A stretch of DNA of 64,000 nt from Bradymonadia bacterium (GTDB lineage: Bacteria > Myxococcota_A > Bradymonadia > UBA7976 > UBA1532), in the NCBI GenBank assembly GCA_046290225.1, contig JBKAGE010000078.1, forward strand, positions 224,001 to 288,000. Reading direction: 5' to 3'. Made by a program: the position numbers and the translations under genes. The notes under the pieces are model-generated. The model was not told the origin of the DNA. It saw only the letters and a program-made list of their open reading frames with translations, and ran no database searches. Position 1 is the stretch's first letter. Each line of letters begins with the position of its first letter. Positions 28,356-54,181 of this stretch are shown here, one piece after another.

Positions 28356-28883
28356 TCAGGCGTCGGCGGACTTCTCGACCTCGGCAGCCTCGGCCACCTC
28401 GGTCTCGGCAGGTGCAGCTGCGACAGCCTCACCACCGCTCAACAGGACGTCCTGCACAGCGGCGTCACCCTCGGGGATGAGCTCGATGATGGCCATCTCG
28501 GCGCCGTCACCGAGACGACGACCCACCTTGATGATGCGGGTGTAACCACCAGGACGATCGATGTAACGCTCGGCCAGCTCACCGAAGAGCTTCTCGAGGA
28601 TCACGCGGTCCTGGATGGTCTTGCCAGCCTGACGCACAGCAGCAACGCGGGCTGCGGTGAGCTGGGCCTTCTCGGCATCGCTGCCAGCGGCTTCGACCTT
28701 GCTGGCGGCATGACGACGCGCAAGGGTGATGAGCTTCTCGGCATGACGCCGAAGCTCCTTGGCCTTGGGCTCGGTGGTCTCGATCTTCTCTACCTCGAAG
28801 AGAGCAGAGGTGAGGTTGCGAAACAGGGCCACCCGATGGCTGGCGTTACGCCCGAGCTTCCGTCCGGATTTGCGATGGCGCAT
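28356..28883 (-). CDS. rplQ: 50S ribosomal protein L17
   Basis: MRHRKSGRKLGR, RPGGYTRIIK. Confidence 0.98.
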   Translation of the reverse strand: MRHRKSGRKLGRNASHRVALFRNLTSALFEVEKIETTEPKAKELRRHAEKLITLARRHAASKVEAAGSDAEKAQLTAARVAAVRQAGKTIQDRVILEKLFGELAERYIDRPGGYTRIIKVGRRLGDGAEMAIIELIPEGDAAVQDVLLSGGEAVAAAPAETEVAEAAEVEKSADA

Positions 28884-28930
28884 GATAGTGCTCCGTAAAA
28901 AATATCGTATACAGGTACGATGCCTTCAGC

Positions 28931-29962
28931 TCACTTACGGCGAGCGTCCGGGCTCCACCCTTCGAGTTTCATACCGAGTGCCAGGCCCATGGTGGCCAGG
29001 ACCTCTTTGATCTCTTTGAGAGACTTCCGACCAAAGTTCTTGGTCTTGAGCATCTCAGCTTCGGTCCGCTGAACCAGCTCACCGATGAATTTGATGTTGG
29101 CATTCTGCAGGCAGTTGGCCGAGCGCACCGAGAGCTCAAGCTCATCGACGGTGCGGTACAGGTTCTCGTTCTGCAGCAGCTCGTTCACCGGGGAATCGAC
29201 ATCCTCTTCGGGCTCGGCCTCTTCATCGAAGTTGATGAAGATGCTCACCTGCTCTTTGAGGATCTTGGCGGCGTAGGCCACGGCGTCGACAGGGATGACG
29301 CTGCCGTCGGTCCACACCTCGAGCACCAGACGATCGTAGTCAGTCTGCTGACCGACGCGAGCGTTGGTGACGTTGTAGTTCACGCGCCGAATGGGGCTGA
29401 ACATGGCGTCGATGGGGATGGTCCCCACAGGCTGGTTCTCGCTCTTGTTCTTCTCGGCAGGCACATAGCCCCAACCGGTCCGCACGGACAGCTCCATGCT
29501 GAGCCGGCCACCCTCGCTCACGGTGGCGATGTGGGCGTCGGGGTTGAGCACGTCCACCATGCCATCGCCGACGATGTCGGCACCGGTGACGGTGGCGGGG
29601 CCGGTGACGTCGAGACGCACGACGCGCGGCTCGTTGGTGTGCACCTTGAACCGCAGCTCCTTTACGTTGAGGATGATGTCAGTCACATCCTCGAGCACCT
29701 CAGGCACACTGCTGAACTCGTGCAGCACACCATCGATCCGCAGCGCGGTGCATGCTGCGCCCTGAAGGGACGACAGCAGGATCCGCCGCAGCGAGTTGCC
29801 GATGGTGATGCCGTAGCCCCGCTCAAAGGGCTCGGCGACGAACTTGCCATAGGTGTCAGTGGCGTGCTCGACCTGGATGCCCTTGGGACGAATCAAATCG
29901 CGCCAGTTGCGGGCGATCATCTCCATCGGCTTGTTCTCATCGACATTGACGTCATTCGTCAT
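28931..29962 (-). CDS. rpoA: RNA polymerase alpha subunit
   Basis: [33 protein letters not shown]. Confidence 0.99.
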
Positions 29963-30153
29963 TGCGGACAGTCCCTCCTCAGGGGGGTTACCCGTTTACG
30001 AACCCACTGCGGATCCGGTACCCGAACCAGTGAATGAATCAGACAAGCCAAGACACATGTCGTCAGCCTGCCCCTGCTCGCCCGAGGGCGACGTTCAAAC
30101 ACAGCAGCGGCCACCCAGTTGAAGAGCGACCGCCACGCTGTGCAACCGCGAGA

Positions 30154-30549
30154 TTAGACGCGGCGACGCTTGGGGGGACGACACCCGTTGTGGGGAATCG
30201 GCGTGACGTCACGGATGTGAGTCACCTTGAACCCCGCCGAGTTGAGCGCCCGCAGCGCAGCCTCACGGCCAGCGCCAGGCCCCTTCACGTAGATGCCGAT
30301 GGAACGCATGCCATGCTCCATGGCTTTGCGCGCGGCATCTTCGGCGGCAAGCTGCGCCGCGAAGGGGGTGCTCTTCCGGCTGCCCTTGAAACCGCGGGAG
30401 CCGGCCGAGGACCAGGAGATGCAGTTCCCCTGGACGTCGGTGATGGTGATGATGGTGTTGTTGAACGTCGACTGAATGTGGGCAATGCCCGACTGGACGT
30501 TCTTCTTCACCTTGCGCTTGGTGCCCTTGCGGGAAGATGCCTTGGCCAT
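30154..30549 (-). CDS. rpsK: 30S ribosomal protein S11
   Basis: [27 protein letters not shown]. Confidence 0.99.
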
Positions 30550-30573
30550 GGTTCAGGCGCCTTTCAGATATCT

Positions 30574-30942
30574 TTACTTCTTCTTCTTGGGCACGACCTT
30601 GCGGGGGCCCTTACGAGTCCTGGCGTTGGTCCGAGTACGCTGACCACGAACCGGCAGGCCGCGACGATGGCGCAGCCCACGGTAGCAGCCGAGATCCATC
30701 AAACGCTTGATGTTCAACTGCACCGTGCGACGAAGATCACCCTCAACCTTGAGGTGATCTTCGATGTAGGTCCGGATGCGACGAACGTCAGCATCAGACA
30801 GGTTGTCGGTCCGCAGGTTCTCGTCGATCCCACACGAGGCGAGGATCTTGGCCGAGGTGGAACGACCAATCCCGTGGATGTAGGTCAGACCAATCAGGAC
30901 CCGCTTGTTACGGGGCAGGTCTACGCCGGAAATACGCGCCAT
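30574..30942 (-). CDS. rpsM: 30S ribosomal protein S13
   Basis: [28 protein letters not shown]. Confidence 0.99.
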
Positions 30943-30962
30943 CTTAGCTCTCTCCTGTGGGG

Positions 30963-31076
30963 TCAGCCCTGACGCTGCTTGTGGCGTGGGTTCTCACAGA
31001 TGACCCGGACCACCCCATGACGCCGAATAATTTTACACTTTTCGCAAATTCGCCTGACGGAGGCTCGAACCTTCAT
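30963..31076 (-). CDS. rpmJ: 50S ribosomal protein L36 (Zn-binding form)
   Basis: [37 protein letters not shown]. Confidence 0.98.
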
Positions 31077-31249
31077 ATCCCTACTCCAGCTCTTCGTCGG
31101 AGCTTTCAACGGCCACAAGCGCATGGGCCGCTCATAATTTGCAGAGCCGCCTAAAAAGGCGGTTCTAAATAGAGTCAATCCAGCAACAAAGCAAGAAGTT
31201 TGTTGGACTGGTCTGCCCCCTGGTCAAACCCACATGGGTTTGACCCCGC

Positions 31250-32584
31250 TCAAGCGGTGGAGGTCTGCCGATTCCGGATACGCCCGCCGCGGCTCCGATC
31301 GGTGAAGTTGTCATAGTCGCGAGTGATCAGGTGACTCCTGATCTGCTCCACAGTATCCAAGGCCACGGAGACGACGATGAGCAGCGAGGTGCCACCGAAG
31401 TAGAACGAGACCTTGAACTCTTCCTGCACGAACATCGGCACGACACACACCGCGGCGACATAAGTAGCGCCACCAGTGGTGATACGGGTCAGCACGAAGT
31501 CGATGTACTCGGCGGTCTTGGCCCCAGGACGAATCCCGGGAATGTAGCCACCATGCTTCTTCAAGTTCTCAGCGACATCGACGGGATTGAACATCACGGC
31601 GGTGTAGAAGTAACAGAAGAAGATGATGAGGCCACAGAAGACCAGGTTGTACTGCCATGCACCAGGCGTCAGCGCGGCCTGAACCGTGTTCATCCACTCA
31701 GCGTCGGTCCACCCCGCGATGGTGGCGGGGAACATCAGGATCGACGAGGCGAAGATGGGCGGAATCACACCAGCCATGTTGACCCGCAGGGGCAAGTGGG
31801 TGCTCTGAGCGGCACCGACCTTGTTACCTACGAGTCGCTTGGCGTACTGAATCGGAATGCGCCGCTGACCCCGTTCGATGAACACGATGAACATGATGAC
31901 AGCCAGCACGACGCCCACGAGAGCGAGCAAGGTGAAGAGCTGAATCTGCTCAGAGCGGAACATCTGCAGAGTCTGCAGGATGGCGTCGGGCAGCCCGGCG
32001 ACGATGCCGGCGAAGATGATGAGGCTCATCCCGTTGCCGATGCCACGCTCGGTGATCTGCTCGCCGAGCCACATGATGAAAGCGGTACCAGCAGCAAGGG
32101 TGAGGACGGTCATGAACCGGAACGTGAACGTACCTGGCTCACGGACGACCTGACCACTGCCCCCCTCATTGATGCCCTCGAGGAAGAAGGCGATGAAGAG
32201 GCCCTGCACGATGGCGAGACCAATGGTGGAGTATCGCGTCCACTGATTGATCTTCTTACGCCCCTGCTCGCCCTCTTTGTTGAGACGGTCGAGAGTGGGC
32301 ACGACCACGGTGAGCAGCTGGAAGATGATGGAGGCAGAGATGTAGGGCATGATGCCCAGTGCGAACACGCTCAACTGTTCAATGGCACCGCCGCTGAACA
32401 TGTTGAACAGGCCAAGGAAGCCACCGCTCCCCTGACCCACGTTCATGAAGTCTGCCATCTTCTCGCGATCAACACCTGGCAGGGTAATGAATACGCCGAT
32501 CCGATAGACGGCGAGCATGGAAAGCGTAAATAGAATCCGCTTCCGGAGCTCGGGGATTCGGAAGATGTTGATCAGGGTTTCCAC
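31250..32584 (-). CDS. secY: Preprotein translocase SecY
   Basis: [40 protein letters not shown]. Confidence 0.99.
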
Positions 32585-32597
32585 TCGATGCCGCCTT

Positions 32598-33047
32598 TCA
32601 GCTGCCGAGGATCTCTACAGTCCCGCCGGCGCTCTCGATCTTTTGCACCGCGGACTTGCTGAACTTATGGGCCTTGACGGTGAGAGAGACGCTGATCTCC
32701 CCATCACCAAGGATCTTGAGGGCAGTGGCCCGCTTCTTGATGAGCCCGCGAGTCCGCAGGAACTCCTCGTCAACGATGGTGCCCGCCTCGAAGTTGGCAA
32801 GGGCGCCGACGTTGATGATGGCGATTTCCTCGCGGCTACGGCTCACGAAGCCTCGCTTGGGCAGACGACGGGCGAGGGGCATCTGGCCACCCTCGAAACC
32901 ACGCGCCGGACCACCACCGCTACGGGACTTCTGCCCCTTCATACCGCGGCCAGCGGTCTTGCCCCAGCCGGAGGACTCGCCTCGGCCGATGCGCTTCTTC
33001 TTACGAACTGCCCCTTCGGCAGGGGTCAGGTTGCTCAGCTCATTCAT
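32598..33047 (-). CDS. rplO: 50S ribosomal protein L15
   Basis: RIGRG..SG.GKT.GRG.KGQKSR, FEGGQMP. Confidence 0.98.
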
Positions 33048-33050
33048 GGC

Positions 33051-33233
33051 TCACTCCCCTACCGATTCCCACTCGACCAGGTGGCTGACCTTGTTGATCA
33101 TGCCCCGAACGGCGGGGTTGTCGGGCAGAACTCGTGATGAGTTCAAACGGCCAAGGCCCAGACCCTTAAGGACATCACGGTGACGCTGAGGACGACCGAT
33201 GGGGCTCTTGCGCAAGGTAACTTTGATCTTCAT
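33051..33233 (-). CDS. rpmD: 50S ribosomal protein L30
   Basis: [14 protein letters not shown]...[11 protein letters not shown]. Confidence 0.97.
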
Positions 33234-33243
33234 GGTACGCTCC

Positions 33244-33756
33244 TCACTCCGGGACGTTGTGCCCGATGTCCTCGACGGACAGGCCACGCTTGGAGGCGGT
33301 GCGCTCCACGGAAACGAGGTGCTGCAGCGCGTTGACAGTGGCGTGGACCATGTTGTGAGGGTTGTTGCTCCCCAGCGACTTGGTCAGCACGTTGTGCACG
33401 CCGGCAGCCTCGAGGACGGCACGGACAGCACCACCGGCGATCACACCGGTACCACCACTGGCAGGGCGCAGAAGCACCCGCCCGGCACCGAAGTGGCCGA
33501 GGATGTCGTGAGGGATGGTCCCGTGAATCAAGGGGACGTCGAACATGGCCTTGCGGGCACGCTCGTTGCCCTTGCGGATCGCTTCGGGCACCTCGTTGGC
33601 CTTACCAAGACCAACGCCCACTCGACCCTGACCATTCCCAACGACGACGAGGGCGCTGAAGCTGAACCGCCGGCCGCCCTTGACCACCTTGGCCACTCGG
33701 TTGATGCTGATGACCTTGTCGATCAGCTCTTCTTCATTCGTGTTCGCCACGGCCAA
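33244..33756 (-). CDS. rpsE: 30S ribosomal protein S5
   Basis: [24 protein letters not shown]; start TTG 33756 or GTG 33750. Confidence 0.98.
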
Positions 33757-33844
33757 TTTTTAGCTCCCAGGCGGGCAACAGCCGCACATAAATAAAACGA
33801 ACGCGCTCAAACGTCGCCGACATGCGTCGTGCGATGGAGCGCGG

Positions 33845-33874
33845 AGTTTTAACTTCAGACCCTCCAGGTGTCAA
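33845..33874 (-). promoter_or_regulatory. Possible internal sigma70 promoter upstream of rpsE
   Basis: TTGACA-17/18-TAAAACT followed by CCGC in a 134-nt gap. Confidence 0.45.
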
Positions 33875-33890
33875 CACCTGACCGGCCAAC

Positions 33891-34259
33891 TTAGAATACG
33901 AGACCAGCTTCCCGGGCGGCGTCCGCGAGGACCTTCACGCGCCCGTGGTAGATGAACCCGTTGCGGTCAAAGACCACGGTTTCGATATTCTGAGCCCGAC
34001 ACTTGTCAGCGATCAGACGCCCAACCAAACCGGCCATCTCGGACTTCTTCTTCCCCTCACGCTGATCGCGAATCTCGGGGGTCAGAGTCGACGCCGCGGC
34101 CAGGGTACGGCCGGTGGTGTCATCGATGACCTGGGCATAGATGTGCTGACTCGAGCGGAAGACGCTCAGCCGAGGACGCTCGGTGCTGCCGCTGATCCGC
34201 TTGCGAATCGAACGCTTGCGCCGAAGGCGGCCCTGCAGTTTGGGATCGGTACGACCCAT
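33891..34259 (-). CDS. rplR: 50S ribosomal protein L18
   Basis: [22 protein letters not shown]. Confidence 0.98.
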
Positions 34260-34286
34260 TGTCTGATCTCCCTCGCCTCAACGACC

Positions 34287-34826
34287 TCAGCGGCCGCCAG
34301 ACTTGCCTTCTTTACGCCGGATAACTTCGTCGGAGTACTTCACGCCCTTGCCCTTGTAGGGCTCGGGGGGCCGGAAGCCGCGAATGACGGCGGCGGCCTG
34401 GCCCACCTTCTGGCGATCGATACCATTCACGGAAACGCGGGTTGCGCTCTCGATCTTGGCGTCGAGGCCCTCGGGCACTTCGTAATAGATGGGGTGGCTG
34501 TAGCCAAGCGAGAAGACGAGGTACTCCTTCTTCTGCTCGACCTTGTAACCCACGCCCACGATGTCCAGGGACTTGGTGTAGCCCTTGCTCACACCCTCAA
34601 CCATGTTGTTGATGAGGCTGCGTGCGAGGCCGTGCATGGCCTTGGCGGTCCGCTCCTCGGAGGCCCGCTTCACCACGACGTTACCGTCGTCGATGCTGAC
34701 GTCGACCTTGGGCGGAATAGGCCGGCTGAGGGTGCCCTTGGGCCCCTTCACCGTAATGTTGCCGCCAGAGGTCTCCACGGTCACCCCACCAGGGATAACC
34801 ACCGGCAATTTGCCGATACGGGACAT
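34287..34826 (-). CDS. rplF: 50S ribosomal protein L6
   Basis: MSRIGK, RPPEPYKGKG. Confidence 0.98.
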   Translation of the reverse strand: MSRIGKLPVVIPGGVTVETSGGNITVKGPKGTLSRPIPPKVDVSIDDGNVVVKRASEERTAKAMHGLARSLINNMVEGVSKGYTKSLDIVGVGYKVEQKKEYLVFSLGYSHPIYYEVPEGLDAKIESATRVSVNGIDRQKVGQAAAVIRGFRPPEPYKGKGVKYSDEVIRRKEGKSGGR

Positions 34827-34899
34827 GATGGTCTCCTATCTTTGGATACTGGCAGTGACGGCAGGCTCGGCCCGACCGCCTCAAATCACCAAGTTGTCT

Positions 34900-35298
34900 T
34901 CACCACACCGAGCAGAGGTGCTCACCACCAATTTGGAGGGAGCGAGCCTGCTTGTCGGACATCACACCCCGAGAGGTGGACAAGATGGCGATGCCAAGGC
35001 CATTCCGCACGCGCGGGAGGCCACGATGCTTGACATAGATACGCTGGCCAGGACGTGACACACGCTTCAAGCCGGTGATGACTGAGGCGTTCTCAGGCGT
35101 GTACTTCAGGAAGATGCAAATCTGATCCTGAACGCCGTCCTTCACGATCTTGAAGTTACGCACGAAACCCTCCTCACGGAGGATGTTCACGATGCGCAGC
35201 TTCAAGTTGGACGCTGGGACGAATACCTTGTCGTGCCGCACGGCTGAAGCGTTGCGAATACGAGTCAAGAGGTCCGCAATCGGGTCGGTCATCCCCAC
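34900..35298 (-). CDS. rpsH: 30S ribosomal protein S8
   Basis: [27 protein letters not shown]. Confidence 0.98.
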
Positions 35299-35365
35299 GG
35301 AACTTCCCCTTGTAGCATTAGGCGTGAGCCCTGAGGCCCAAACCTGTGAAACGTTTCAAAACGGA

Positions 35366-35925
<560 letters not shown>

Positions 35926-35929
<4 letters not shown>

Positions 35930-36303
35930 CGGAACACCTCACCGGTCCGGGCGCAGTACCGGACCTTCTTGATCGTGCCGTCTTGCTGGCCGCCGAAGCT
36001 GGCCAGCGCCTCTTTCTTGGAGGCAAACAGCGCGCCTTCCTTGCCCTCGTAACGGTACCCGAGACGCACGCCACGGCCCGCCTCTTCGGAATATACGAGA
36101 ACGTTGGAGGCGTGAATGCCTGCCTCTTTCTCAATGATGCCCGACTCTTCGTTGGCCACGTTCTGTCGCTGGTGGCGCTTGACGATGTTCAGGCCTTCTA
36201 CATAGACGCGGTTCCGCCGGTGATCGACCCGAATAACGGTCCCGATCTTGCCCTTCTCTTTGCCGGCGGTCACCTGGACCTTGTCGTTGGTCTTGATGTG
36301 CAT
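35926..36303 (-). CDS. rplX: 50S ribosomal protein L24
   Basis: KOW motif V.AGKEKGK.G.V; EA.IH.SNV. Confidence 0.97.
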
Positions 36304-36341
36304 ATTGATACCTCGACCTCGGGGCAGACTCAGTGAGCCGC

Positions 36342-36710
36342 TCAGAGAACCTCTGGGGCCAGCGAAACGATCTTCATAAACTTCTTGGCGCGCAGCTCGC
36401 GAGCTACAGGGCCGAAGATACGGGTACCGACGGGCTCGTTCGAGTTGTCGATGAGCACGGCGGAGTTCTCATCGAACTTGATGTACGACCCGTCGACTCG
36501 GCGCACCTCTTTCTTGGTGCGCACGATCACTGCCCGCTTCACCTGGCCCTTCTTGACCTTGGAGTTGGGCAGCGCCTCTTTGACGGCCACGACGACGATG
36601 TCGCCGATGGAAGCCACCCGACGCTTGGAGCCCCCGAGCACCTTGATGCACTGGAGCTTCTTGGCACCGGAGTTGTCGGCGGCGGTCATCACGCTCTGCA
36701 TCTGGATCAT
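36342..36710 (-). CDS. rplN: 50S ribosomal protein L14
   Basis: [26 protein letters not shown]. Confidence 0.99.
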
Positions 36711-36748
36711 GGTCTGATCTCCTTATAAAGCTGATGGGTGGTCTGAAA

Positions 36749-37060
36749 TCAGACCACCACCGCCCGGGTCTTGATGGACTGAAGACGCCAACGCTTCTCG
36801 CGGCTCATGGGACGGCACTCCTCGATGAGGACGGTGTCGCCGGTACGGGCCTCGTTGCGCTCGTCGTGGGCTTTGTACTTCACCCGCTGACGGACGTACT
36901 TCTTGTAGACAGGGTGACGCACCATGCGCACGGTCTGCACGACGATGGTCTTCTCCATCTTGTCGCTGACCACGACGCCCTCGCGCACCTTACGGTGGCC
37001 CCGAGTACGGGTGGTGTCGGCGGCAGCGCCTGCCTCTTCCTTGTTCACAACGTCAGTCAT
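36749..37060 (-). CDS. rpsQ: 30S ribosomal protein S17
   Basis: GVVVSDKMEKTIVV, HPVYKK, ECRPMS. Confidence 0.98.
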   Translation of the reverse strand: MTDVVNKEEAGAAADTTRTRGHRKVREGVVVSDKMEKTIVVQTVRMVRHPVYKKYVRQRVKYKAHDERNEARTGDTVLIEECRPMSREKRWRLQSIKTRAVVV

Positions 37061-37072
37061 GTCAAAATCCCG

Positions 37073-37279
37073 TTACTTGTCGGCCTGTTGGGCAAGCTCG
37101 CGCTCACGGATCACGGTCTCGACGCGGGCGATGTCTCGCCGCGTGACGCGGATCTCAGCGGTGTTGAGCAGCTGGCCAGTGTAATGCTTAAAACGCAGGT
37201 CGAAGCTCTGGCGACGCAGCTCGGCGCTGAGCGCCTTGAGCTCGTCGACCGACTTCTCCCTCAAATCTTTGGCCTTCAT
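37073..37279 (-). CDS. rpmC: 50S ribosomal protein L29
   Basis: MKAKDLR, RRDIAR..T. Confidence 0.96.
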   Translation of the reverse strand: MKAKDLREKSVDELKALSAELRRQSFDLRFKHYTGQLLNTAEIRVTRRDIARVETVIRERELAQQADK

Positions 37280-37280
37280 G

Positions 37281-37691
37281 TCACTGACCTCTCATCAGGA
37301 AACGGGTCTTGACGGGCAGCTTGTGGGCGGCGAGCCGGAAAGCCTCACGGGCGAGCTCTTCGCTGACGCCCTCCATCTCATACATGACGCGGCCAGGGCG
37401 AATCATGACCACCCAGTGGTCCACAGCACCCTTACCTTTACCCATCCGGGTCTCAGCGGGCTTCTTGCTGATCGGCTTGTCGGGAAACACCCGAATCCAG
37501 ATCTTGCCGGTACGCTTGACGTGACGGGTCATCGCGATACGGGCAGCCTCGATCTGGCGAGCGGTGACTCGACCATGGGACAACGCCTGCAGCCCGAACT
37601 CCCCGAAGTGGACATCGGTACCGCCCTTGGCGAGGCCCCTCAAGCGGCCCTTTTGCTGCTTACGAAATTTGGTTCTCTTCGGGGACAGCAT
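37281..37691 (-). CDS. rplP: 50S ribosomal protein L16
   Basis: [18 protein letters not shown]. Confidence 0.99.
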
Positions 37692-37755
37692 TGTCTCTCT
37701 CCCGCAGTGTCAGGGAATCCCCTGCACTTTCGTGTGATAAACCGCTCGAGGTGAG

Positions 37756-38406
37756 TCAGCGACGTGCGCCGGCTTCCTTGTCCTCGAGAACCTCGCCTTT
37801 GAAAATCCAGCACTTGATGCCAATGACCCCGTAGGTGGTCCTGGCAATGGCGGTGCCGTAGTCGATGTCGGCGCGAAGAGTGTGCAACGGCACCCGGCCG
37901 TCGCGGTACCACTCGTACCGACCCATCTCGGCGCCGCCGAGCCGCCCGGAGGCGGAGATACGGAAGCCCTTGGCGCCGAACTTCATGCCCGTCTGCATGG
38001 CCTTCTTGAGGGCCCGACGGAATGCGACGCGACGCACGAGCTGTGCGGCGACGTTCTCGGCGACGAGGGTGGCGTCGAGCTCGGCCTTGCGGACCTCCTG
38101 GATGTTCAGGAAGATCTCGCCGGCAACGAGCTTGCTCACGTCACGCTTGAGCTCATCGACCCCAGCGCCACGCTTGCCGATCACGATGCCAGGCCGGGCG
38201 GTGAAGATGTTGATCTTCACCTTGTTGGCCATGCGCTCGATCTCGATCTTCGAGATGCCGGCGTGCATGAGTTTCTTCTTGATGAAGCGACGCAGCTTGA
38301 TGTCCTCGTGGAGCCAATCAGCGTAACGCTTCTCTTCGTACCACTTGGACTTCCAGCCCTTGATGACCCCGAGACGGAAGCCAATCGGATGAGTTTTCTG
38401 GCCCAT
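37756..38406 (-). CDS. rpsC: 30S ribosomal protein S3
   Basis: [27 protein letters not shown]. Confidence 0.99.
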
Positions 38407-38420
38407 CGGTTAAACCTCTC

Positions 38421-38747
38421 TCAGTCCACCACGCCGAGCACGCAGGTCACGTGGCTCGTCATCTTGTTGATCCGGGTCGCCCGGCCCATGGCCCGGGGAC
38501 GGAAGCGACGAAGGGTCGGGCCCTCGTCGACGAAGATTTCCTTGACGAACAAGGCGTCGGGATCGACGCCGGCGTTCTCAGCGTTGCTGGCGGCGCTCTC
38601 AATGAGCTTGCGCACCGGCTCGCTGGCCGCACGATGGGTGAACGTCAAGATGTTCACGGCCTCGGCGAGGGACTTGCCCCGGACGAGGTTTACGACCAGC
38701 CGAGTCTTGCGAGGGCTGACTCGGAGGTATCGAAGCTTAGCCTTCAT
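38421..38747 (-). CDS. rplV: 50S ribosomal protein L22
   Basis: [20 protein letters not shown] 38747. Confidence 0.98.
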
Positions 38748-38760
38748 CGGGTCATCTCCC

Positions 38761-39039
38761 TCAGCGCCGCTTGGACTTCTTATCGGCCATGTGGCCGTAG
38801 TAAGTCCGGGTGGGCGAGAACTCGCCAAGCTTGTGACCAACCATGTTCTCGGTGACGAACACCGGGATGAACTTGCGGCCATTGTGCACGGCGAAGGTGT
38901 GGCCGAGGAACTCAGGCAGAATCGTACTGCGCCGAGACCAGGTCTTGATCACCTTTTTGGAGCCCGACTCGTTCATCTGCATCACCTTGTCCATGAGGTG
39001 ATGGTCGACGAAGGGCCCCTTGCGAATTGAACGTGGCAT
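38761..39039 (-). CDS. rpsS: 30S ribosomal protein S19
   Basis: [21 protein letters not shown]. Confidence 0.99.
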
Positions 39040-39053
39040 CGTCTACCCCTTCC

Positions 39054-39881
39054 TCACTTCTTGCCGCGGCGCTTGACGATCATGTTGTCGGTACGGTGGT
39101 TCCGGCGGGTCTTCTTGCCCTTGGTCGGCACACCCCAAGGCGAAACGGGGTGACGACCACCGGAGGTCCGACCCTCACCACCACCGTGGGGGTGATCGAC
39201 GGGGTTCATGGCCACACCGCGAACGGCGGGGCGCTTGCCGAGCCAGCGTGAGCGACCGGCCTTGCCGAGCCGCACGTTGCCGTGCTCTTCGTTGCCCACC
39301 TGGCCAACAGTGGCCCGGCAGTTGAGGTGCACGCGGCGGACCTCACCGGAGGGCAGACGGAGCTGGCTCCAGTCACCCTCTTTGGCGAGGATCTGAGCGG
39401 AAGCACCAGCGGCACGGCACATACGAGCGCCGGCGCCGATCTTCAGCTCGACCGCGTGAATCAGCGTACCCACGGGGATGTTCCGGATGGGCAGGCTGTT
39501 ACCAGGCTTGATGTCAGCACCACGGCTGGAGACGACGACGTCACCGGCCTTGAGGCCCTTGGGAGCCAGGATGTAGCGCTTCTCGCCATCGACGTAGTGG
39601 AGCAGAGCGATACGCGCGCTGCGGTTGGGATCGTACTCGATGGTGGCCACGTGGGCCTCGACACCGTACTTGTCCCGCTTGAAGTCGATGATGCGGTAAC
39701 GACGCTTGTGACCGCCGCCACGACGACGGGCGGTGATGCGACCGTAGACGTTGCGACCTGCCTTCTTGCGCAGGGCCGACGTGAGCTTCTTCAAGGGACC
39801 GTTGCTGGCGGTCTCCGAGAAATCGCTCACGGACATGGCCCGGCGACCGGCAGAAGTCGGCTTGTACTTCTTGGTAGCCAT
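39054..39881 (-). CDS. rplB: 50S ribosomal protein L2
   Basis: [26 protein letters not shown]. Confidence 0.99.
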
Positions 39882-39887
39882 CGCTGC

Positions 39888-40244
39888 TTACTCCGTCGCC
39901 TCGTCGATGGGGGCGTCGAACTCGCCCATCCCGTCCACGTCTTCCAGGTCATCGAGGCCTTCGAAGAACTCCACCTCGGAGCCCTCGGCGAGGGTGACGA
40001 TGGCCTTCTTCCACCCGGTGCGGTAACCCATGCTACGGCCGACGCGCTTGGGCTTGCCGCGGTAGATCATGGTGTTGACCGACTCGACCTTGACGTCGAG
40101 CAGCTGCTCGACGGCCTGGCGGATCTCGATCTTGTTGGCATCTTTGCGGACCACGAAGGCCACCTGGTTGGTGTCTTCCTTCTGAGCCGTGGTCTTCTCG
40201 GTGATCAGCGGCCGCCGCAGGATGCTGTGGATATCTTTCTTCAT
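39888..40244 (-). CDS. rplW: 50S ribosomal protein L23 with an acidic C-terminal tail
   Basis: PLITEK, ANKIEI, WKKAIVTL. Confidence 0.97.
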   Translation of the reverse strand: MKKDIHSILRRPLITEKTTAQKEDTNQVAFVVRKDANKIEIRQAVEQLLDVKVESVNTMIYRGKPKRVGRSMGYRTGWKKAIVTLAEGSEVEFFEGLDDLEDVDGMGEFDAPIDEATE

Positions 40245-40861
40245 TTGCCCAACACTCCCTCGATGCGCCGCACTGCGGGCTCGGTGAGCACCACATAGTT
40301 GTGCTTGAGCACATCAAACAGGTTCAGCCCCTCAACCGGCAGGTACTTGACCCGGGGGAGGTTGCGGACCGACAGCTGCAGCTCGTTGTTGGGGCCGTCG
40401 ATGACCACGGCGTTGCCGTTGGTCAGCGCACCCATCACCTTGGCGGCGGTCTTGGTCTTGATCTCACCGAGGGTGAGATCCTGAACCACCACGAGGTGAC
40501 CCTCCTGAACGCGACGGCTCAGAGCGGAACGAAGAGCGGCCTTGCGCACCTTCTTGTTGATGGGGAAGGCGTGCGAACGGGGCTGAGGCCCGTGCACGAC
40601 ACCACCACCGACAAACTGGGGTGCGCGGCGGGTGCCTTGACGTGCACGACCGGTGCCCTTCTGACGGTAGGGCTTGGCCCCACCACCCGCCACCTGGGAT
40701 CGACCCTTGGTGGCGTGGGTACCAGCGCGCCGCTTGGCGAGCTGCCACTTGATGACTTCATAAAAGAGGTGCTCTTTGACCTCGGTGTTGAACACCGAAT
40801 CGGAGACCTCAATCTCTCCGACCTGCTGCTTGGTCAGGTCGTATACCGGGAGCGTAGCCAT
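40241..40861 (-). CDS. rplD: 50S ribosomal protein L4
   Basis: [25 protein letters not shown]. Confidence 0.98.
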
Positions 40862-40874
40862 TGATAAAAGCTCC

Positions 40875-41180
40875 TCAGGACTTCAGCTCGACGTTCACCC
40901 CAGCAGACAGGTCGAGCTTCATCAGCGCGTCCAGGGTCTGCGGAGTGGGCTCCAAGATATCGAGCAGTCGCTTGTGCGTGCGGATCTCGAACTGCTCCCG
41001 GCTCTTCTTGTCGACGTGGGGGCCTCTCAACACGGTGTAGCGGCTGATCGCGGTGGGGAGAGGAATCGGCCCCGCCACCTTGGCCCCGGTGCGCCGCGCA
41101 ATGTCGACGATCTCGGAGGCCGACTGATCGAGCAGCTTGTGATCGTAAGCCTTCAGCCGGATACGGATCTTCTGACTCAT
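40875..41180 (-). CDS. rpsJ: 30S ribosomal protein S10
   Basis: [30 protein letters not shown]. Confidence 0.99.
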
Positions 41181-41247
41181 GGTCCAGGTCCTATCTAAAC
41201 CGTCTCTCGAAGCCGCCCTTTCTCAAGAGCCGGCTCGACGGATACCC

Positions 41248-43326
<2,079 letters not shown>

Positions 43327-43359
43327 GGAGTGCGTCCTCTAACCTGCTGGAAATGATGC

Positions 43360-43830
43360 TTACCAGCGGTAGTGGGCGAAGGCCTTGTTGGCCTCGGCCA
43401 TCTTGTGCGTGTCTTCGCGCTTCTTCACGGCGTTACCACGACCAGCGGCGGCGTCGAGGAGCTCACCAGCGAGCTTCTCGGCCATGGTCTTCTCGTGGCG
43501 AGACCGGGCGTAGTTGATGATCCACCGGATGCCGAGGGCGGTACGACGCTCGCCACGGATCTCGATCGGCACCTGGTAGGTGGAACCACCGACGCGGCGG
43601 CTCTTGACCTCGAGACTGGGCTTGACGTTGTCGATGGCCTTCTTGAAGAGACGCAGGGGCTCTTCCTTGGAGCGGCGCTCCACGATCTCGAAGGCGTCGT
43701 ACACGATGGCCTCGGCAATCGACTTCTTGCCGCGGGTCATCAGGCAGTTGGTGAACTTGGCAACGAGACGATCCCCGTACTTCGGATCGGGGAGGGTCTT
43801 GCGCTTGGGAACTTCTCTACGGCGAGGCAT
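43360..43830 (-). CDS. rpsG: 30S ribosomal protein S7
   Basis: [29 protein letters not shown]. Confidence 0.99.
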
Positions 43831-43840
43831 CTGACCGCTC

Positions 43841-44215
43841 CTACTTCTTGGGGCGCTTGGCGCCGTACTTGGAACGGCCCTGGTTGCGGTTGGAGACGCC
43901 GGTGGCGTCCAAGGTGCCGCGGATGATGTGATAGCGGACACCGGGAAGGTCCTTCACACGACCGCCACGGATGAGCACCACGGAGTGCTCCTGGAGGTTG
44001 TGACCCTCGCCGGGAATGTAACTGGTGACCTCAATCCCATTGGAGAGACGAACACGGGCGACCTTACGAAGGGCCGAGTTCGGCTTCTTGGGGGTTGAGG
44101 TGTATACCCGGACGCACACACCACGCTTCTGCGGGCAGGCCTGCAGCGCGGGAGCGGTGTTCTTCTGGAACTTCCGCTTGCGGCCGTGACGAACCAACTG
44201 GCTGATAGTCGGCAT
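43841..44215 (-). CDS. rpsL: 30S ribosomal protein S12
   Basis: [21 protein letters not shown]. Confidence 0.99.
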
Positions 44216-44444
44216 GCGTACTCAATCCTCGATAGAACGTGCGCTTTGCATGTCGCAAAGCGCTTCCTAAAACTACGACAACGGATTGCCTACCAGGGGG
44301 GTGTGCAGACGCATGAACGCGCCTGACGCTCGATGGGGCGACCCAACGAATCACCCCCGGTGGTTCGGCTCCGCAGTCAGCGGCCCGCCTTCCGGGTAGT
44401 GATGCCGCCCTTCACGAATGCTACAGGCGGCGAACAGGTGGCGG

Positions 44445-44472
44445 ATTATAAGTGTGAATGCAGAGCAGTCAA
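44445..44472 (-). promoter_or_regulatory. sigma70 promoter of the str operon
   Basis: TTGACT-16-TATAAT followed by GC-rich CCGCC. Confidence 0.8.
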
Positions 44473-44515
44473 GGAGTTTCTCAATAACGCTGCATTCTCC
44501 GGAAATGTTTAGGTT

Positions 44516-48667
<4,152 letters not shown>

Positions 48668-48857
48668 GCGTGCTCCACTCACCCAGAGGTAAGGCACTCC
48701 CTCTGAGGGGCCTGGCCAGCCACCCCGCCGAGGGAGGTAAAGAAGAGTCTCGAACGCTCGGCCCCCTGCTCCCCTGAGCAAGGGCGGCGGCCGGGCAGGC
48801 CACATCACGTTCGAGTGAGCGCAACAGGTCACCCCATCGCGCTATGCCCATCTACGC

Positions 48858-48890
48858 AAAAAGGCCCGATCACGCAAGGTGACCGGACCT
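48858..48890 (-). terminator. rplL-rpoB attenuator/terminator
   Basis: Minus strand AGGTCCGGTCAC-cttgc-GTGATCGGGCCT followed by a U tract. Confidence 0.75.
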
Positions 48891-48937
48891 AAAGGTGTGC
48901 GAAGCCAGCCACAGGCCAGCTACGCAGGTCAAGTGAT

Positions 48938-49318
48938 TTACTTGACCTCGACCTGACCGCCGGCCTCTTCGATCTTGCCCTTGACGGTCTCGGCCTCTTC
49001 CTTGGACACGCCCTCCTTGAGAGCGTTGGGGGCGCCGTCCACCAGAGCCTTGGCGTCCTTGAGACCCAGGCCGGTGAGCTCGCGGACCACCTTGATGACG
49101 GCGATCTTCTTGGCGCCGGCGCTGGTGAGGATCACGTCGAACTCGGTCTTCTCTTCGACAGCAGCAGCGGCCTCGCCACCACCACCACCGGTCACGGCGA
49201 CGGCTGCGGCGGCGCTCACGCCCCACTTCTCCTCGAGCTCCTTGACGATCTCGGAGATCTCCATGACGGTGAGGTTGCTGAGGAAGTCGATGACCTGGTC
49301 TTTGTTGAGATCGCTCAT
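48938..49318 (-). CDS. rplL: 50S ribosomal protein L7/L12
   Basis: [26 protein letters not shown]. Confidence 0.99.
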
Positions 49319-49418
49319 TGTGTTTCTCCTATGAAGTTGAGCTGTTCAATGTTGCTGGCTGAACCAGCGATATATGTGTACGAACGGGTAGTTCTGGGCG
49401 AATCGGTCAAGGTCTGCC

Positions 49419-49961
49419 TCAGGCAGCCTTGGCGTCTCCACCACCTTCTTCGAGCTGCTGCTTGCGGGCCTGCAGGACCTGCATGAAGTCCCGAGGTGCG
49501 GCGCTGAGCACGCGCACCATGGCCGTAGGCACGCCCAACATGACGTTGAGGAGCTTGCTCCTCAGCTCGTCCTTGCCCGGCATCTTGGACAGACCGTCGA
49601 CGCCATTCTCGTCGAGGATCGTCCCCTCCACCCAGCCACCCTTGATCACGAGCTTCTTGTGATCCTTGGCGAACTTGAGGAGCAGCTTGGCAGCGGTGCC
49701 GGGCTCCTCGGGGTGGTAGGCGATGGCCGAGTTGCCCTTGAACAGGTCGTTGAGCCCCTCCATGGAGGTGCCGGCGATCGCGCGCTTGGCCAGGGTGTTC
49801 TTGACGACCTCGAACGTGCAGCCGGCGGCGTCCAATGTACGCCGCAGCTCGTCGCTCTCAGCCACCTTGAGACCCTGGAAATCGGCGACCACCACCGAAG
49901 GCACGCCGTCGAGGTCGTCCTTCAGCCGCTCAACGAGCGCGGTCTTGGTTTCCCGGTTCAT
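49419..49961 (-). CDS. rplJ: 50S ribosomal protein L10
   Basis: V.KNTLAKRA, LSKMPGKDEL. Confidence 0.97.
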   Translation of the reverse strand: MNRETKTALVERLKDDLDGVPSVVVADFQGLKVAESDELRRTLDAAGCTFEVVKNTLAKRAIAGTSMEGLNDLFKGNSAIAYHPEEPGTAAKLLLKFAKDHKKLVIKGGWVEGTILDENGVDGLSKMPGKDELRSKLLNVMLGVPTAMVRVLSAAPRDFMQVLQARKQQLEEGGGDAKAA

Positions 49962-49979
49962 GGTCACTTCCCCTTGTTG

Positions 49980-50092
49980 GGGCGGGGAGATGCTTCATAT
50001 GAAACAGCTCAACCCCGCCTCGGCGGGCGATCTCGGCTGGAAGGCCGAGGGATTAAGCGCTCCCCCATGGAGCGCACCCGCTGTCTATGGCG
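49980..50092 (-). ncRNA. L10 leader (rplJ autoregulatory RNA)
   Basis: Minus strand TAGACAGCGGGTGC...CTTAAT...CCCGCCGAGG resembles the L10-leader core; lies directly 5' of rplJ. Confidence 0.7.
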
Positions 50093-50164
50093 AGCGGCGC
50101 CAAAAAACGGCGCCCCTCATAAAAAACTCGGTCGAACGAGTCAAGAGCCTCGTGGCTCTCGAAC

Positions 50165-50863
50165 TCAGTTCTTGAACGCGTTCGGATCCAGCCGGAGCCC
50201 GGGGCCCATGGTGCTGGTGAGGGTCACGTTCTTCATGTAGACACCCTTGGCGCTGGCGGGCTTGAGCCGGAGCAGGGCCTCCATGAGGGTGTTCAGGTTG
50301 CCCCGGAGGGCCTCGGCGGTGAACGAGATCTTGCCCACGGGGGCGTGCACGATGCCGGCACGCTCGACGCGGAACTCGACCCGACCGGCCTTCATCTCAC
50401 CCACGGCCTTGGCCACGTCGAAGGTCACGGTGCCCACCTTGGGGTTGGGCATCAGACCACGGGGGCCGAGGATGCGACCGATGCGGCCCACGAGGCCCAT
50501 CATGTCGGGGGTGGCGACGGCCTTGTCGAAGTCGAGCCAGCCTTCGTCTTTGATCTTGGCGACGAGATCTTCGCCACCGACGAAGTCGGCACCGGCCTCG
50601 CGGGCCTCGTTGGCCTTCTCGCCCTTGGCGAAGACGGCGACGCGCACGCTCTTGCCCAGACCGTTGGGGTACACCACGGCGCCACGGACCATCTGGTCGG
50701 CGTGACGGGGGTTCACCCCGAGGTTGACGGCCACCTCGACGGTCTCGTCGAACTTCGCGAAGGCGCCGCCCTTGAGCAGCTCGATGGCGTCAGTGGGATC
50801 GTAGAGCAGGCCGCGATCGACCCGCTTCATCATGTTCTCGTAATTCTTGCCACGCGTCGGCAT
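50165..50863 (-). CDS. rplA: 50S ribosomal protein L1
   Basis: [25 protein letters not shown]. Confidence 0.99.
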
Positions 50864-50885
50864 GAGATGCCCTCCTTGTGCGTGT

Positions 50886-50924
50886 CCCCGGTGCATGCGA
50901 CCACCTCGAGGGTGATCTCCCGGG
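50886..50924 (-). ncRNA. Putative L1-binding autoregulatory element 5' of rplA
   Basis: cccGGGA-gatcacc(ctcga)ggtggtc-gcatgc-ACCgggg resembles the L1 operator layout. Confidence 0.5.
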
Positions 50925-51010
50925 CCTTGGTGCTCCTCAAAATAGGCGGAGCACGGTGTTTAAATAATGCTCAGCGTGTACCTGATGTCTGGTGCCCGAA
51001 GGCCCGAGAC

Positions 51011-51439
51011 TCAGGCCTCGACGACGTTGAGGCCCATAGAGCGGGCGGTGCCAGCGATGGTGCGCATGGCAGCTTCGACGTTGTCGGTGTTGAGATCAGG
51101 GAGCTTCAAGGTGGCGATCTCCTTGACCTGCTCCGTGGTCACGCTGCCGACCTTGGTCTTGTTCGGCTCAGCAGACCCGCTCTCGATGCCGGCGGCCTTG
51201 AGCAGCAGCACGGCAGCGGGGGGGGTCTTGGTGATGAAGGAGAAGGACCGGTCAGCGTAGACGGTGATCACCACGGGGATGATCATGCCCACCTGATCGC
51301 TGGTCCGGGAGTTGAACTCCTTCACGAACTGCATGATGTTCACACCATGCTGACCGAGGGCGGGACCCACGGGCGGGGAAGGGTTGGCCTTCCCAGCGGG
51401 GACCTGCAGCTTGATGAGGCCGGTAATCTTCTTGGCCAT
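51011..51439 (-). CDS. rplK: 50S ribosomal protein L11
   Basis: [24 protein letters not shown]. Confidence 0.99.
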
Positions 51440-51492
51440 AGCGAAGGCTCCTTATAAAACAGCGGCCCTCTCTCGACGGCCGCGCATGCGCC

Positions 51493-52032
51493 TTATGACT
51501 TCTCGACCTGGGTGAAGTCCAGCTCCACCGGGGTGGCGCGTCCGAAAATACTCACCAACACCCGCAGCTTGCCCTTGTCGAGGTTCACCTCGTCGACGGT
51601 GCCGTTGAAGTTGGCGAAGGGGCCGTCGGTGACCCGTACGGTCTCGCCCTCTTCGAAGCGCAGCTTCGGCGCCGGACGGGCGGTGCCCTCTTCGATCTGG
51701 TTGGTCAGCCGGGCGATCTCGCGCTCGGGCACGCTGGGCACGGACTCGGGGGTGGCCCCGCCGCCGACGAAGCCGGTGACCCGCGGGGTGTCCTTCACGA
51801 TGTGCCAGGTGCGCTTGTTGAGATCCATCTTCACCAGGATGTACCCGGGGAAGAACTTACGGGCAGAGGTCTTCCGCTCGCCCTTCACGACCTCGGTGAC
51901 GTTCTCGCGAGGCACCAAAACCTCGGTGAACTCTTCCTCGGCGTTGTGCTGCTTGATGCGCTCCCACAGGGCGGTCTCGACCTTGTTCTCAAAGCCAGAG
52001 TAGGTGTGGACCACATACCATTTGTGTGACAT
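51493..52032 (-). CDS. nusG: Transcription factor NusG
   Basis: [26 protein letters not shown]. Confidence 0.99.
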
Positions 52033-52133
52033 CTCTCTACTCTCCGTACGCGCTGGGGCGAATCACCAATTGAAGGTTCAATGTGTAAGAAGCAGGCTTG
52101 GGGGACACGGATCGCCGAAGTGGATGGCGATGC

Positions 52134-52526
52134 TCAGGTCCCTCCCCCACCGAGAATCCAGTTGGTGAGCTTGAAGAAGACAGTGTCAAAGATCCACAGG
52201 ATGGCCGAGATGATGACCGTCACGAGGATGGTCATCCAGGTGTTGGACTTGGTCTCTTCCCATGTGGGCCAGGTGACCTTGGACAGCTCGTCGACCACCT
52301 CGCCCAGCTGAGGCCGGTAGCGGGGGTGCCGCCAGGCCCAGAAGAGCAACGCCAAAGCGGTGATGGCACCGAGCAGGTGAGCGACGGTGAACGACTGGCC
52401 CAGGAGGTGGCGAGGCTGGATGCCGAAGCTGGCGAAGCCAGAGGCGAACGCCTTCCAGAAGATGACGTAGGCGAGGATCGTGCCCACCGCATACGTCAGG
52501 TTGACCATTCGCTTGTTGGTGTTCAT
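52134..52526 (-). CDS. secE: Preprotein translocase SecE (3-TM form)
   Basis: ELSKVTWPTWEET; located 5' of nusG. Confidence 0.95.
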   Translation of the reverse strand: MNTNKRMVNLTYAVGTILAYVIFWKAFASGFASFGIQPRHLLGQSFTVAHLLGAITALALLFWAWRHPRYRPQLGEVVDELSKVTWPTWEETKSNTWMTILVTVIISAILWIFDTVFFKLTNWILGGGGT

Positions 52527-52670
52527 GCCACTTCGCCTGGCCTTGACTCCCCCGACCCCGCGTGCTCAGGCCCGCGGAGTCAAGAGCCCTTCACCACCCC
52601 AAGGCCTGTTGTAGGGTCTTGGTGAAGGGGTTGAGGTGCCCCAAAAGTGGCACCATTTTTCCTGCATAAG

Positions 52671-52743
52671 CAGGGCCGACAGGACTCGAACCTGCAACCC
52701 TCGGATTTGGAGTCCGATGCTCTACCAATTGAGCCACAGCCCT
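52671..52743 (-). tRNA. tRNA-Trp(CCA)
   Basis: AGGGCTG...TCGGA-CTCCAAA-TCCGA...GGTTCGAGTCC...CGGCCCTG; CCA end not encoded. Confidence 0.95.
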
Positions 52744-52832
52744 ACACGTGAGCAAGCGATTGCCCAAACGTGCGAGACCCGGGCAACTGCCCGGGCCTCA
52801 AAAGTCGATGACCACTTGGGTCACGACCTTGA

Positions 52833-54017
52833 TTACTCGACGATCTTGGACACCACACCGGCACCCACGGTACGGCCACCCTCGCGGATGGCGAACCGGA
52901 GACCCTCATCCATGGCGATGGGGGTGATCAGGGTGACGTTGATGGTGATGTTATCACCGGGCATGCACATCTCGACGCCCTCGGGCAGCTTGCAGCTACC
53001 GGTCACATCGGTGGTGCGGAAGTAGAACTGAGGACGGTAGCCGTTGAAGAACGGAGTGTGACGACCACCCTCCTCCTTCTTGAGCACGTAGACCTCAGCC
53101 TCGAACACCGTGTGAGGGGTGATGCTGCCGGGCTTGGCGAGCACCTGACCACGCTCGATGTCGGTACGCTTGATACCGCGAAGGAGGAGACCGACGTTGT
53201 CGCCAGCCTGACCCTCGTCGAGGAGCTTACGGAACATCTCGACACCGGTGACGGTGGTCTTGTGGGTGTCGCGGATGCCGACGATCTCGACCTCTTCGGA
53301 CACCTTGATGATCCCGCGCTCCACGCGGCCGGTGGCCACGGTGCCGCGACCGGCGATGGAGAACACGTCCTCGACGGGCATGAGGAAGTCACGGTCGATG
53401 TCGCGCACGGGCTCGGGCACGAAGGTGTCGACAGCTTCCATCAGCTCGAAGATCTTGGCCACGCCGTCGGCGTCACCCTCGAGAGCCTTCAGAGCGGAGC
53501 CGATGATGACCGGGCAGTCATCGCCGGGGAACTCGTACATGCTCAGGAGCTCGCGCACCTCCATCTCCACCAGCTCGAGGAGCTCCTCATCGTCGACTAG
53601 GTCGGCCTTGTTGAGGAACACCACGATGGCGGGCACGCCAACCTGGCGAGCGAGGAGGATGTGCTCGCGGGTCTGAGGCATGGGGCCGTCAGCAGCGGAG
53701 CACACGAGAATGGCGCCGTCCATCTGGGCAGCACCGGTGATCATGTTCTTGATGTAGTCCGCGTGCCCGGGGCAGTCCACGTGAGCGTAGTGGCGGTTGT
53801 CCGTCTCGTACTCAACGTGAGCAGTGGAGATGGTGATGCCGCGCTCCCGCTCCTCGGGGGCGTTGTCGATCTCGTCGAACGCCTTGACCTCGCCACCGTG
53901 CTTCTCGGAGAGAACCTTGGTGATGGCGGCGGTAAGAGTGGTCTTACCGTGGTCGACGTGACCGATGGTCCCCACGTTGACGTGGGGCTTATTGCGAACA
54001 AACTTCTCCTTGGCCAT
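52833..54017 (-). CDS. tuf: Elongation factor Tu
   Basis: [27 protein letters not shown]. Confidence 0.99.
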
Positions 54018-54060
54018 CTGAAACCTGCTCCCTAGCCTGGAGTGACCAACGAGAGGGCGG

Positions 54061-54088
54061 ATTATGCCGCACCCCGCGAAGTTGCCAA
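54061..54088 (-). promoter_or_regulatory. Possible internal tuf promoter
   Basis: TTGGCA-16-CATAAT followed by CCGCC. Confidence 0.5.
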
Positions 54089-54108
54089 CGTGGAAAGAAT
54101 CGTAAAAA

Positions 54109-54181
54109 AGCCGATGACCGGACTTGAACCGGTGACCTCACCCTTACCAAGGGTGTGCTCTACCAACTGAGCTACATCGGC
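54109..54181 (-). tRNA. tRNA-Thr(GGT)
   Basis: GCCGATG...ACCCT-TGGTA-AGGGT...GGTTCAAGTCC...CATCGGCT. Confidence 0.95.

Follow-up and report, generated by a model that had tools for sequence, protein, structure and literature searches.

Removal of single genes from the large ribosomal protein clusters of bacteria has been described in print. Passages of a study covering Gammaproteobacteria and Bacilli describe displacement of rpsN and rpmJ (PMC8046335), and parts of another (Chen, Roberts and Luthey-Schulten 2009, PMC3087516) distinguish cysteine-containing (C+) and cysteine-free (C-) paralogues of S4, S14 and L33, a notation credited there to Makarova et al., with the C+ form encoded in the operon and the C- form elsewhere, and a lone C- gene remaining once the C+ one is lost; both S4 forms are listed for Myxococcus, Sorangium and Bdellovibrio. 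The rplKAJL-rpoBC operon is called universally conserved in a passage of PMC12993453, where the whole locus is described as moved in Vibrio. The locus analyzed here is the tuf-secE-rpoB-str-S10-spc-alpha superoperon of a Bradymonadia bacterium (genome G000; 8.58 Mb in 83 contigs, 99.4% complete). It lies in a window, meaning the whole stretch of DNA that was analyzed, of 64,000 nucleotides (nt; GenBank assembly GCA_046290225.1, contig JBKAGE010000078.1, here G000:C78:224001-288000). Class, order and family below are those of this genome. The closest of 80 named rpoC loci came from Myxococcota genomes (72-74%).

Nine genes, namely rpmG, rpoC, a second tuf, rplC, rpsN, adk, map, infA and rpsD, are missing between tuf and rplQ, leaving seven gaps. 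The data probably reflect piecemeal erosion of the operon, a known process by the same mechanism as in the parts of PMC8046335 and PMC3087516 considered here, with gaps of different age each arising singly after a working second copy existed elsewhere. Taken together, the seven gaps do not amount to a system. What merits following up is the recurrence of a solitary rpoC, the remainder being known operon erosion.

Superoperon gaps and the whereabouts of the missing genes

Naming of genes by NCBIfam bore out an initial annotation, made from the sequence alone, in its claim of canonical order from tuf to rplQ with the above genes absent, and the gap sizes it gave were identical on recomputation (Table 1). 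The window was searched by tblastn with eight probes (the operon rpoC, rpsD, rpsN, adk, map and infA of relatives and the genome's own rplC and rpmG), and because nothing better than an E value of 0.26 was obtained, the gaps hold no remnants of these genes, as had been claimed; the zinc-type L36 was likewise retained as stated. An Rfam scan of positions 27000-56000 detected five tRNAs and nothing else. The true start of rpoB probably lies about 60 codons past the first GTG of its open frame.

Gap junctions were compared with Logan contigs, which are assembled sequences and not raw reads, from public runs of other studies (four of nine runs), over a stretch that spans six gaps and includes neither the rpoC locus nor the rpmG gap. 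All six were bridged by contigs from runs X1, X5 and X7. Record 26 of X7 (43366-44587) connects rpoB directly to rpsL without rpoC, record 25 of X7 (12,246 nt) is collinear across secY-rpmJ, rplE-rpsH and rpsJ-rplD, record 1 of X1 spans rpsK-rpoA, and record 6 of X1 together with record 14 of X5 spans fusA-rpsJ; run X6 yielded short pieces only and was uninformative on junctions. Because X7 is approximately 12% divergent (141 letters differ in the 1217 of record 26), it represents a related organism with the same layout, not this strain. An assembly or binning artefact might be suspected from the 83 contigs, from a junction check made with assembled contigs over a stretch that excludes the rpoC flanks and from the failure to find rpoB in three relatives with a solitary rpoC (G014, G022 and G040). 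However, its probability is negligible given the six junctions bridged in runs from other studies, the identical gaps in relatives, the direct rpoB-rpsL junction in three genomes of sister family f2, and a nearly complete assembly with single copies and matching codon use.

All the missing genes were located elsewhere in the genome (Table 1), as the initial annotation had argued must hold for the essential ones, and a genome search found each in single copy except map, with two. The distance between rpoB and rpoC is at least approximately 280 kb, computed from contig ends. The tail-to-tail neighbour of rplC we take, from its sequence, to resemble dapF. One of the two map genes carries an N-terminal extension, which presumably starts with a SEC-C motif.

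It had been proposed that the whole superoperon was duplicated and that reciprocal loss left a second cluster holding the missing genes in ancestral order. Segmental duplication followed by reciprocal loss is a published model (in a part of Brandis and Hughes 2020, PMC7055797), and every missing gene is indeed present elsewhere. However, a genome search with every one of the nine missing and 36 resident genes found no second cluster and no second copies of resident ribosomal protein or polymerase genes, only GTPase and methyltransferase paralogues. The proposal is refuted because the genes are scattered singly over seven contigs among unrelated neighbours. Moreover, the stand-alone S4 shares no more than 39-44% identity with the operon copies of the family and belongs to a separate clade, among the outside copies only rpoC, rplC and infA look native, and the gap distributions over relatives differ, so the gaps are not of one age. 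Such a duplication is extremely improbable.

Two features of this genome were observed in passing. A dispersed non-coding repeat of approximately 145 nt with an inner hairpin occurs in 112 places, often beginning no more than a few bases from the stop codon of housekeeping genes, and immediately follows three of the orphans, rplC, rpsD and rpmG (C75:87570, C81:23996 and C20:15428). As an agent of the moves it was rejected: many copies lie behind other housekeeping genes, and because there are 112 genome-wide matches and none is listed behind rpoC, rpsN, infA or adk, it is treated as a later insertion. The operon fusA evolves fast in the class (58-68% identity within the family, neighbouring genes 75-95%), and two more EF-G-like genes are present on C34 and C4.

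Table 1. Coordinates of the superoperon, its gaps and the outside copies of the missing genes (positions without a contig are those of the window)
Feature	Position	Strand	Remarks
Superoperon	28356..54017	-	36 protein genes, canonical order, named by NCBIfam
tuf	52833-54017	-	first gene; NCBIfam
rplQ	28356-28883	-	last gene; NCBIfam
tRNA genes	52670..54535	-	Thr, Tyr, Gly, Thr upstream of tuf; Trp downstream
Gap tuf/tRNA-Trp	52744..52832	-	89 nt, without rpmG
rpoB	44516..48832	-	single copy; open frame of 1438 amino acids (aa) from first GTG
Gap rpoB/rpsL	44216..44515	-	300 nt, without rpoC
str promoter, sigma70-like	44445..44472	-	TTGACT-16 nt-TATAAT; hand-counted; 43 nt past rpoB stop
rpsL leader	44216-44445		two-part motif
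fusA	41248-43326
Gap fusA/rpsJ	41181..41247	-	67 nt, without tuf
Gap rpsJ/rplD	40862..40874	-	13 nt, without rplC
Gap rplE/rpsH	35299..35365	-	67 nt, without rpsN
Gap secY/rpmJ	31077..31249	-	173 nt, without adk, map, infA
rpmJ	30963..31076	-	zinc-type L36 of 37 aa, cysteines kept, usual place
Gap rpsK/rpoA	29963..30153	-	191 nt, without rpsD
rpoC	G000:C38:313854-317972		between genes for a long cysteine-rich protein and a Ser/Thr kinase
rplC	G000:C75:86894-87568		tail-to-tail with dapF-like gene
rpsN	G000:C78:351895-352200		sole S14 gene; contig of the window, 74 kb from tuf, opposite strand
rpsD	G000:C81:23381-23995		sole S4 gene
rpmG	G000:C20:15264-15431		sole L33 gene
infA	G000:C79:250163
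adk	G000:C80:104130
map	C80 and C36		two copies; extended one at G000:C36:388113-389246
tuf paralogue	G000:C57:43014-44237		divergent, EF-Tu 56% identical to operon tuf; unrelated neighbours

Ages of the gaps and cysteine-free paralogues

The rplC gap is old, inherited and phylum-wide. None of the 24 class genomes with a mapped S10 region has the gene behind rpsJ, and it is likewise absent there from 29 of 30 loci drawn from the phylum (for loci outside the class, 22 of 23), these being the best 30 of 70 by score; its outside site is also inherited, with the same tail-to-tail neighbour in 16 of 21 class loci. The sole one of the 30 loci with rplC between rpsJ and rplD, L264 (G058:C3), represents either an early-branching lineage or a re-insertion. 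Absence of tuf from the str operon was observed in 18/18 order genomes and three of seven other class genomes, this gap being order-wide and inherited. Losses of rpsN, adk, map, infA and rpsD are patchy in the family, because of the 14 family genomes read over the spc and alpha region three, nine, five, two and ten, respectively, still have the gene in the operon; the C+ L33 gene rpmG is kept in the operon in eight of the 13 family genomes with the tuf-secE region read. In sister family f2 all seven gaps are present in 3/3 genomes. Ordinary lineage synteny, which the initial annotation had set against the idea of a system, is thus found in part: the genes do lie scattered one by one, and lineage synteny does account for the rplC and tuf gaps, but the set of gaps varies across the phylum and that of rpoC is rare.

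Cysteine content separates operon and stand-alone copies of four of the proteins. For S4, examined in 31 of the 38 relatives with a match, four cysteines were present in the first 45 residues of 18/18 operon copies and none in 13/13 stand-alone copies, the two types forming separate clades (100 in the Shimodaira-Hasegawa-like approximate likelihood ratio test, SH-aLRT). S14 was found as 13 short CxxC forms, all on the rplD contig, and 19 long CxxC-free forms, never there (15 with rplD on a different contig, four without rplD found). L33 is cysteine-free at 25/25 stand-alone loci and has four cysteines at 4/4 loci near tuf or secE (29 loci), the two forms being 31-33% identical to each other; nine of 41 genomes hold two L33 copies, an intermediate state, G015 and G023 with one of each form. 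Adk has two CxxC motifs in 14/14 operon copies and none in the G000 orphan, the only orphan Adk examined. The remaining proteins of G000 agree, with a cysteine-free S4, a 101-aa S14 without CxxC and a cysteine-free L33. On sequence grounds the stand-alone C- copy of S4 and L33 is a distant paralogue and not the moved operon gene, and the S4, S14, L33 and Adk gaps follow the known C+/C- displacement pattern. The sole C- copy is expected to be constitutively expressed, and zinc shortage may have been the cause of the C+ losses.

Selective relocation or displacement of zinc-binding members had also been proposed. This stands for L33, S14, S4 and Adk, as displacement by zinc-free paralogues and not as relocation, but not for beta-prime, which is native and has its zinc cysteines; neither rplC and tuf, whose products the initial annotation had itself set apart, nor infA and map fit it. 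Taken as a single cause, one zinc-sparing programme that emptied the operon of all zinc-binding members, beta-prime included, would account for the complete match between cysteine status and location in the four proteins, for the 7/7 orphan-rpoC class genomes that lack an operon S4 or have a stand-alone one, and for the L31 and S18 candidates of G000, found by motif, that lack cysteines. It is nevertheless very unlikely: beta-prime retains its zinc-ribbon cysteines and active-site motif, L36 and L32 retain theirs, four of the missing genes do not fit, and the L33 replacement is class-wide and predates the rpoC move.

The solitary rpoC

In the canonical rplKAJL-rpoBC operon rpoC lies right after rpoB, whereas in G000 rpoB (C78) is followed by rpsL and rpoC lies on C38. 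The G000 gene is 74-78% identical to family operon copies, falls inside the family clade of the rpoC tree (87 SH-aLRT; order 99) and has a codon adaptation of 0.80 as against 0.81 for rpoB; its active-site motif is intact, and the four-cysteine zinc ribbon of beta-prime was present in 5/5 proteins compared. These features identify it as a native gene, and a foreign origin was ruled out by its identity to family copies and its placement in the family tree. The gap left between rpoB and rpsL contains a sigma70-like promoter of the str operon, so that the earlier claim of intact promoters holds for this gap, and promoter-like sequence is kept before rpsL in 12/12 relatives whether rpoC or rpoB precedes. 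Its consensus match and conservation suggest that it is functional, and since it sits before rpsL, rpoC could have left without harm to the str genes. A promoter scan found no sigma70-type promoter upstream of the orphan rpoC. The rpsL leader carries a two-part motif conserved in family f1 and not in f2, with no Rfam match, and is a candidate str-operon regulatory RNA.

Linkage was surveyed in 221 phylum genomes, 182 of which were resolved, the other 39 having missing genes, contig ends or incomplete tables (G226, G242, G115, G171, G163 and G166 were uninformative through contig ends or a gene not found). The two genes are adjacent in 179 of the 182, but not in G000, G040 and G230, and in 78/78 informative loci of the 80 named ones, mostly from Proteobacteria, which places rpoB-rpoC among the most stable bacterial gene pairs. 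The order (31 genomes) comprised 17 linked, six split and eight uncalled genomes. The split ones are G000, the pair G014 and G022, and G025, G026 and G027 of f2, in all three of which rpoB adjoins rpsL directly; this is six of 23 resolved order genomes as against two of 173 in the remaining phylum sample. For G014, G022 and G040, whose assemblies lack rpoB, the split was called from 3.4-8 kb of unrelated DNA upstream of rpoC. In G230, of another class (L275-L277, C1:3031115-3065133), 34 kb of unrelated genes separate rpoB and rpoC on the same strand. G040 and G230 are two further split lineages in the phylum beyond the order. No rpoB-rpoC split was found in print, an absence weakly shown since the searches needed all terms together and miss most subscription journals.

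The rpoC tree requires four changes to explain the seven class orphans. A clade of G000 with G014/G022 was rejected by the approximately unbiased test (p-AU 1.7e-7 on eight other genes in 15 genomes; 0.023 on rpoC), as was a single clade of all six order orphans (p-AU 0.032 on rpoC), whilst one of G000 with f2 was not rejected on rpoC (p-AU 0.056); the rpoB tree places G000 in f1 (99), with the position of f2 unstable. The upstream neighbour of rpoC encodes a cysteine-rich protein in G000, an EAL/GGDEF protein in G014/G022 and an M17 peptidase in f2. Because the first two of these clades were rejected and the neighbours differ, three independent rpoC moves in the order are likely, two of them being well supported. 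A single ancient rpoC paralogue behind all orphans was also considered and rejected, given the p-AU of 0.032 and the grouping of the G040 copy with its linked sister G033. Other arrangements were seen in the survey. In family f6 (L041, L043 and L127; G035, G031 and G038) the rpoBC pair occurs without rplKAJL or rpsL in the stretch examined, and in G031 and G038 the opposite strand carries a stand-alone S4 gene 3 kb ahead of rpoB. In G003 a second, partial rpoB match (G003:C90:564-3974; 1560 bits) besides the operon copy represents contamination or a duplicate.

The rpoC/rpoB root-to-tip ratio was 1.40 for G000, compared with 0.94-1.22 for 13 linked family genomes and 1.12-1.15 for f2, where no excess rpoC length was observed. 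The rpoC branch of G014/G022 measured approximately 0.35 versus 0.10 in the sisters (approximately 3.5-fold), the corresponding values from eight other genes being 0.31 versus 0.30. Long orphan branches are as expected after a duplicate phase. Of 584 beta-prime columns that do not vary among 24 linked genomes, 11 differ in G000, as against one of 570 in rpoB; in a leave-one-out control linked genomes deviate at 0-24 beta-prime columns. Position 1253 is proline in G000, G014, G040 and, checked afterwards, G230, but valine in f2 and in 23/23 linked class genomes with the site; among 18 further linked genomes of the phylum one has proline, as do 16 of 66 loci from a wider set, and this residue, chosen post hoc, is a lead only.

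These observations bear on the alternative that separation of rpoC from rpoB was favoured in this order, freeing the regulation or divergence of beta-prime, with the other gaps as background erosion. It would be consistent with the excess of splits in the order, with the rejected G000 and G014/G022 clade and the different flanking genes of the lineages, with faster rpoC evolution after the move and with the proline of four split lineages at a site that is valine in the linked class genomes. The proline, however, was picked post hoc out of 584 columns, does not occur in f2 and is frequent in other loci; a joint clade of G000 and f2 was not rejected, the order sheds many operon genes so that a generally loose operon accounts for the excess, and the scan upstream of the orphan rpoC revealed no sigma70-type promoter. 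A favoured separation is improbable, and it is similarly doubtful that repeated selected uncoupling has led to a polymerase with large subunits made and regulated independently.

The RNA polymerase of f2 appears strongly remodelled at the sequence level. Its orphan beta-prime is approximately 2600 aa long (L034:6722-14542 in G026:C9, L037 in G025:C182 and L040 in G027:C37), and contains, following residue 150-165, an in-frame insertion of approximately 1200 aa without a Pfam match; beta, at 1718-1758 aa, also has an insertion, and there is unusual divergence in NusG (30-33% identical to that of G000) and alpha (45%). This remodelled polymerase is possibly more interesting than the superoperon gaps.

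Piecemeal erosion and described systems

Under piecemeal erosion an essential gene would leave the operon only once a second copy works elsewhere, the operon copy then being cleanly deleted; we infer this order of copying and deletion. A first layer would comprise the old inherited gaps of rplC in the phylum and of the str tuf in the order. A second would be formed by repeated loss of the zinc-binding operon L33, S14, S4 and Adk, with old zinc-free stand-alone paralogues taking over, and of infA and map from the same spc tail. The third would be a more recent relocation of the native rpoC, likely through duplication followed by loss, which would have brought rpoB right up to the str promoter and so preserved expression of the genes downstream. 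For rplC, infA and rpoC the second copy was likely a duplicate of the native gene.

Several observations weigh against this account. Two full rpoC copies were seen in none of 41 genomes, the duplicate step being unobserved, and no rpoB or rpsL remnants were found flanking the orphan rpoC in G000. No two-copy state was seen in relatives for S14 or S4, and the Adk case involves a single orphan. The C- S4 of G000 groups with that of G014/G022 (96), contradicting the species tree, and some lateral exchange of S4 is possible. Neither the excess of rpoC splits in the order nor the proline shared by four of five split lineages is explained by neutral erosion.

Linked and split sister lineages offer a natural comparison for the roles of shared transcription and coupled translation of beta and beta-prime in polymerase assembly, and selected uncoupling, if true, would be a natural test of why rpoB-rpoC adjacency persists almost everywhere else. 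S4, S14, L33 and Adk mix two paralogue types in the class and will make marker-gene trees misleading, and bins from this group should not be taken as contaminated because rpoC or rplC stands alone in them.

The SNAP model, as set out in part of PMC7055797, could provide the duplicate step for rpoC, infA and rplC, although no second-copy block or remnant is left here as evidence of it. The G000 locus conforms to a Myxococcota-type S10 operon in which rpsJ and rplD are adjacent and rplC stands alone at an inherited site. Compared with parts of PMC3087516, the whole class is here either-or with repeated losses, and Adk behaves likewise. No rpoC-only removal appears in passages and sampled supplement of PMC8046335, the remaining event tables of which could hold one. 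The likeness to the cases described in those passages is otherwise close: the same cluster is involved, single genes are removed with the concatenation left intact, and a pre-existing paralogue or new duplicate takes over (their rpmJ, rpsN, rplJL and secY). Set beside those cases, the seven empty slots of G000 are a heavy load.

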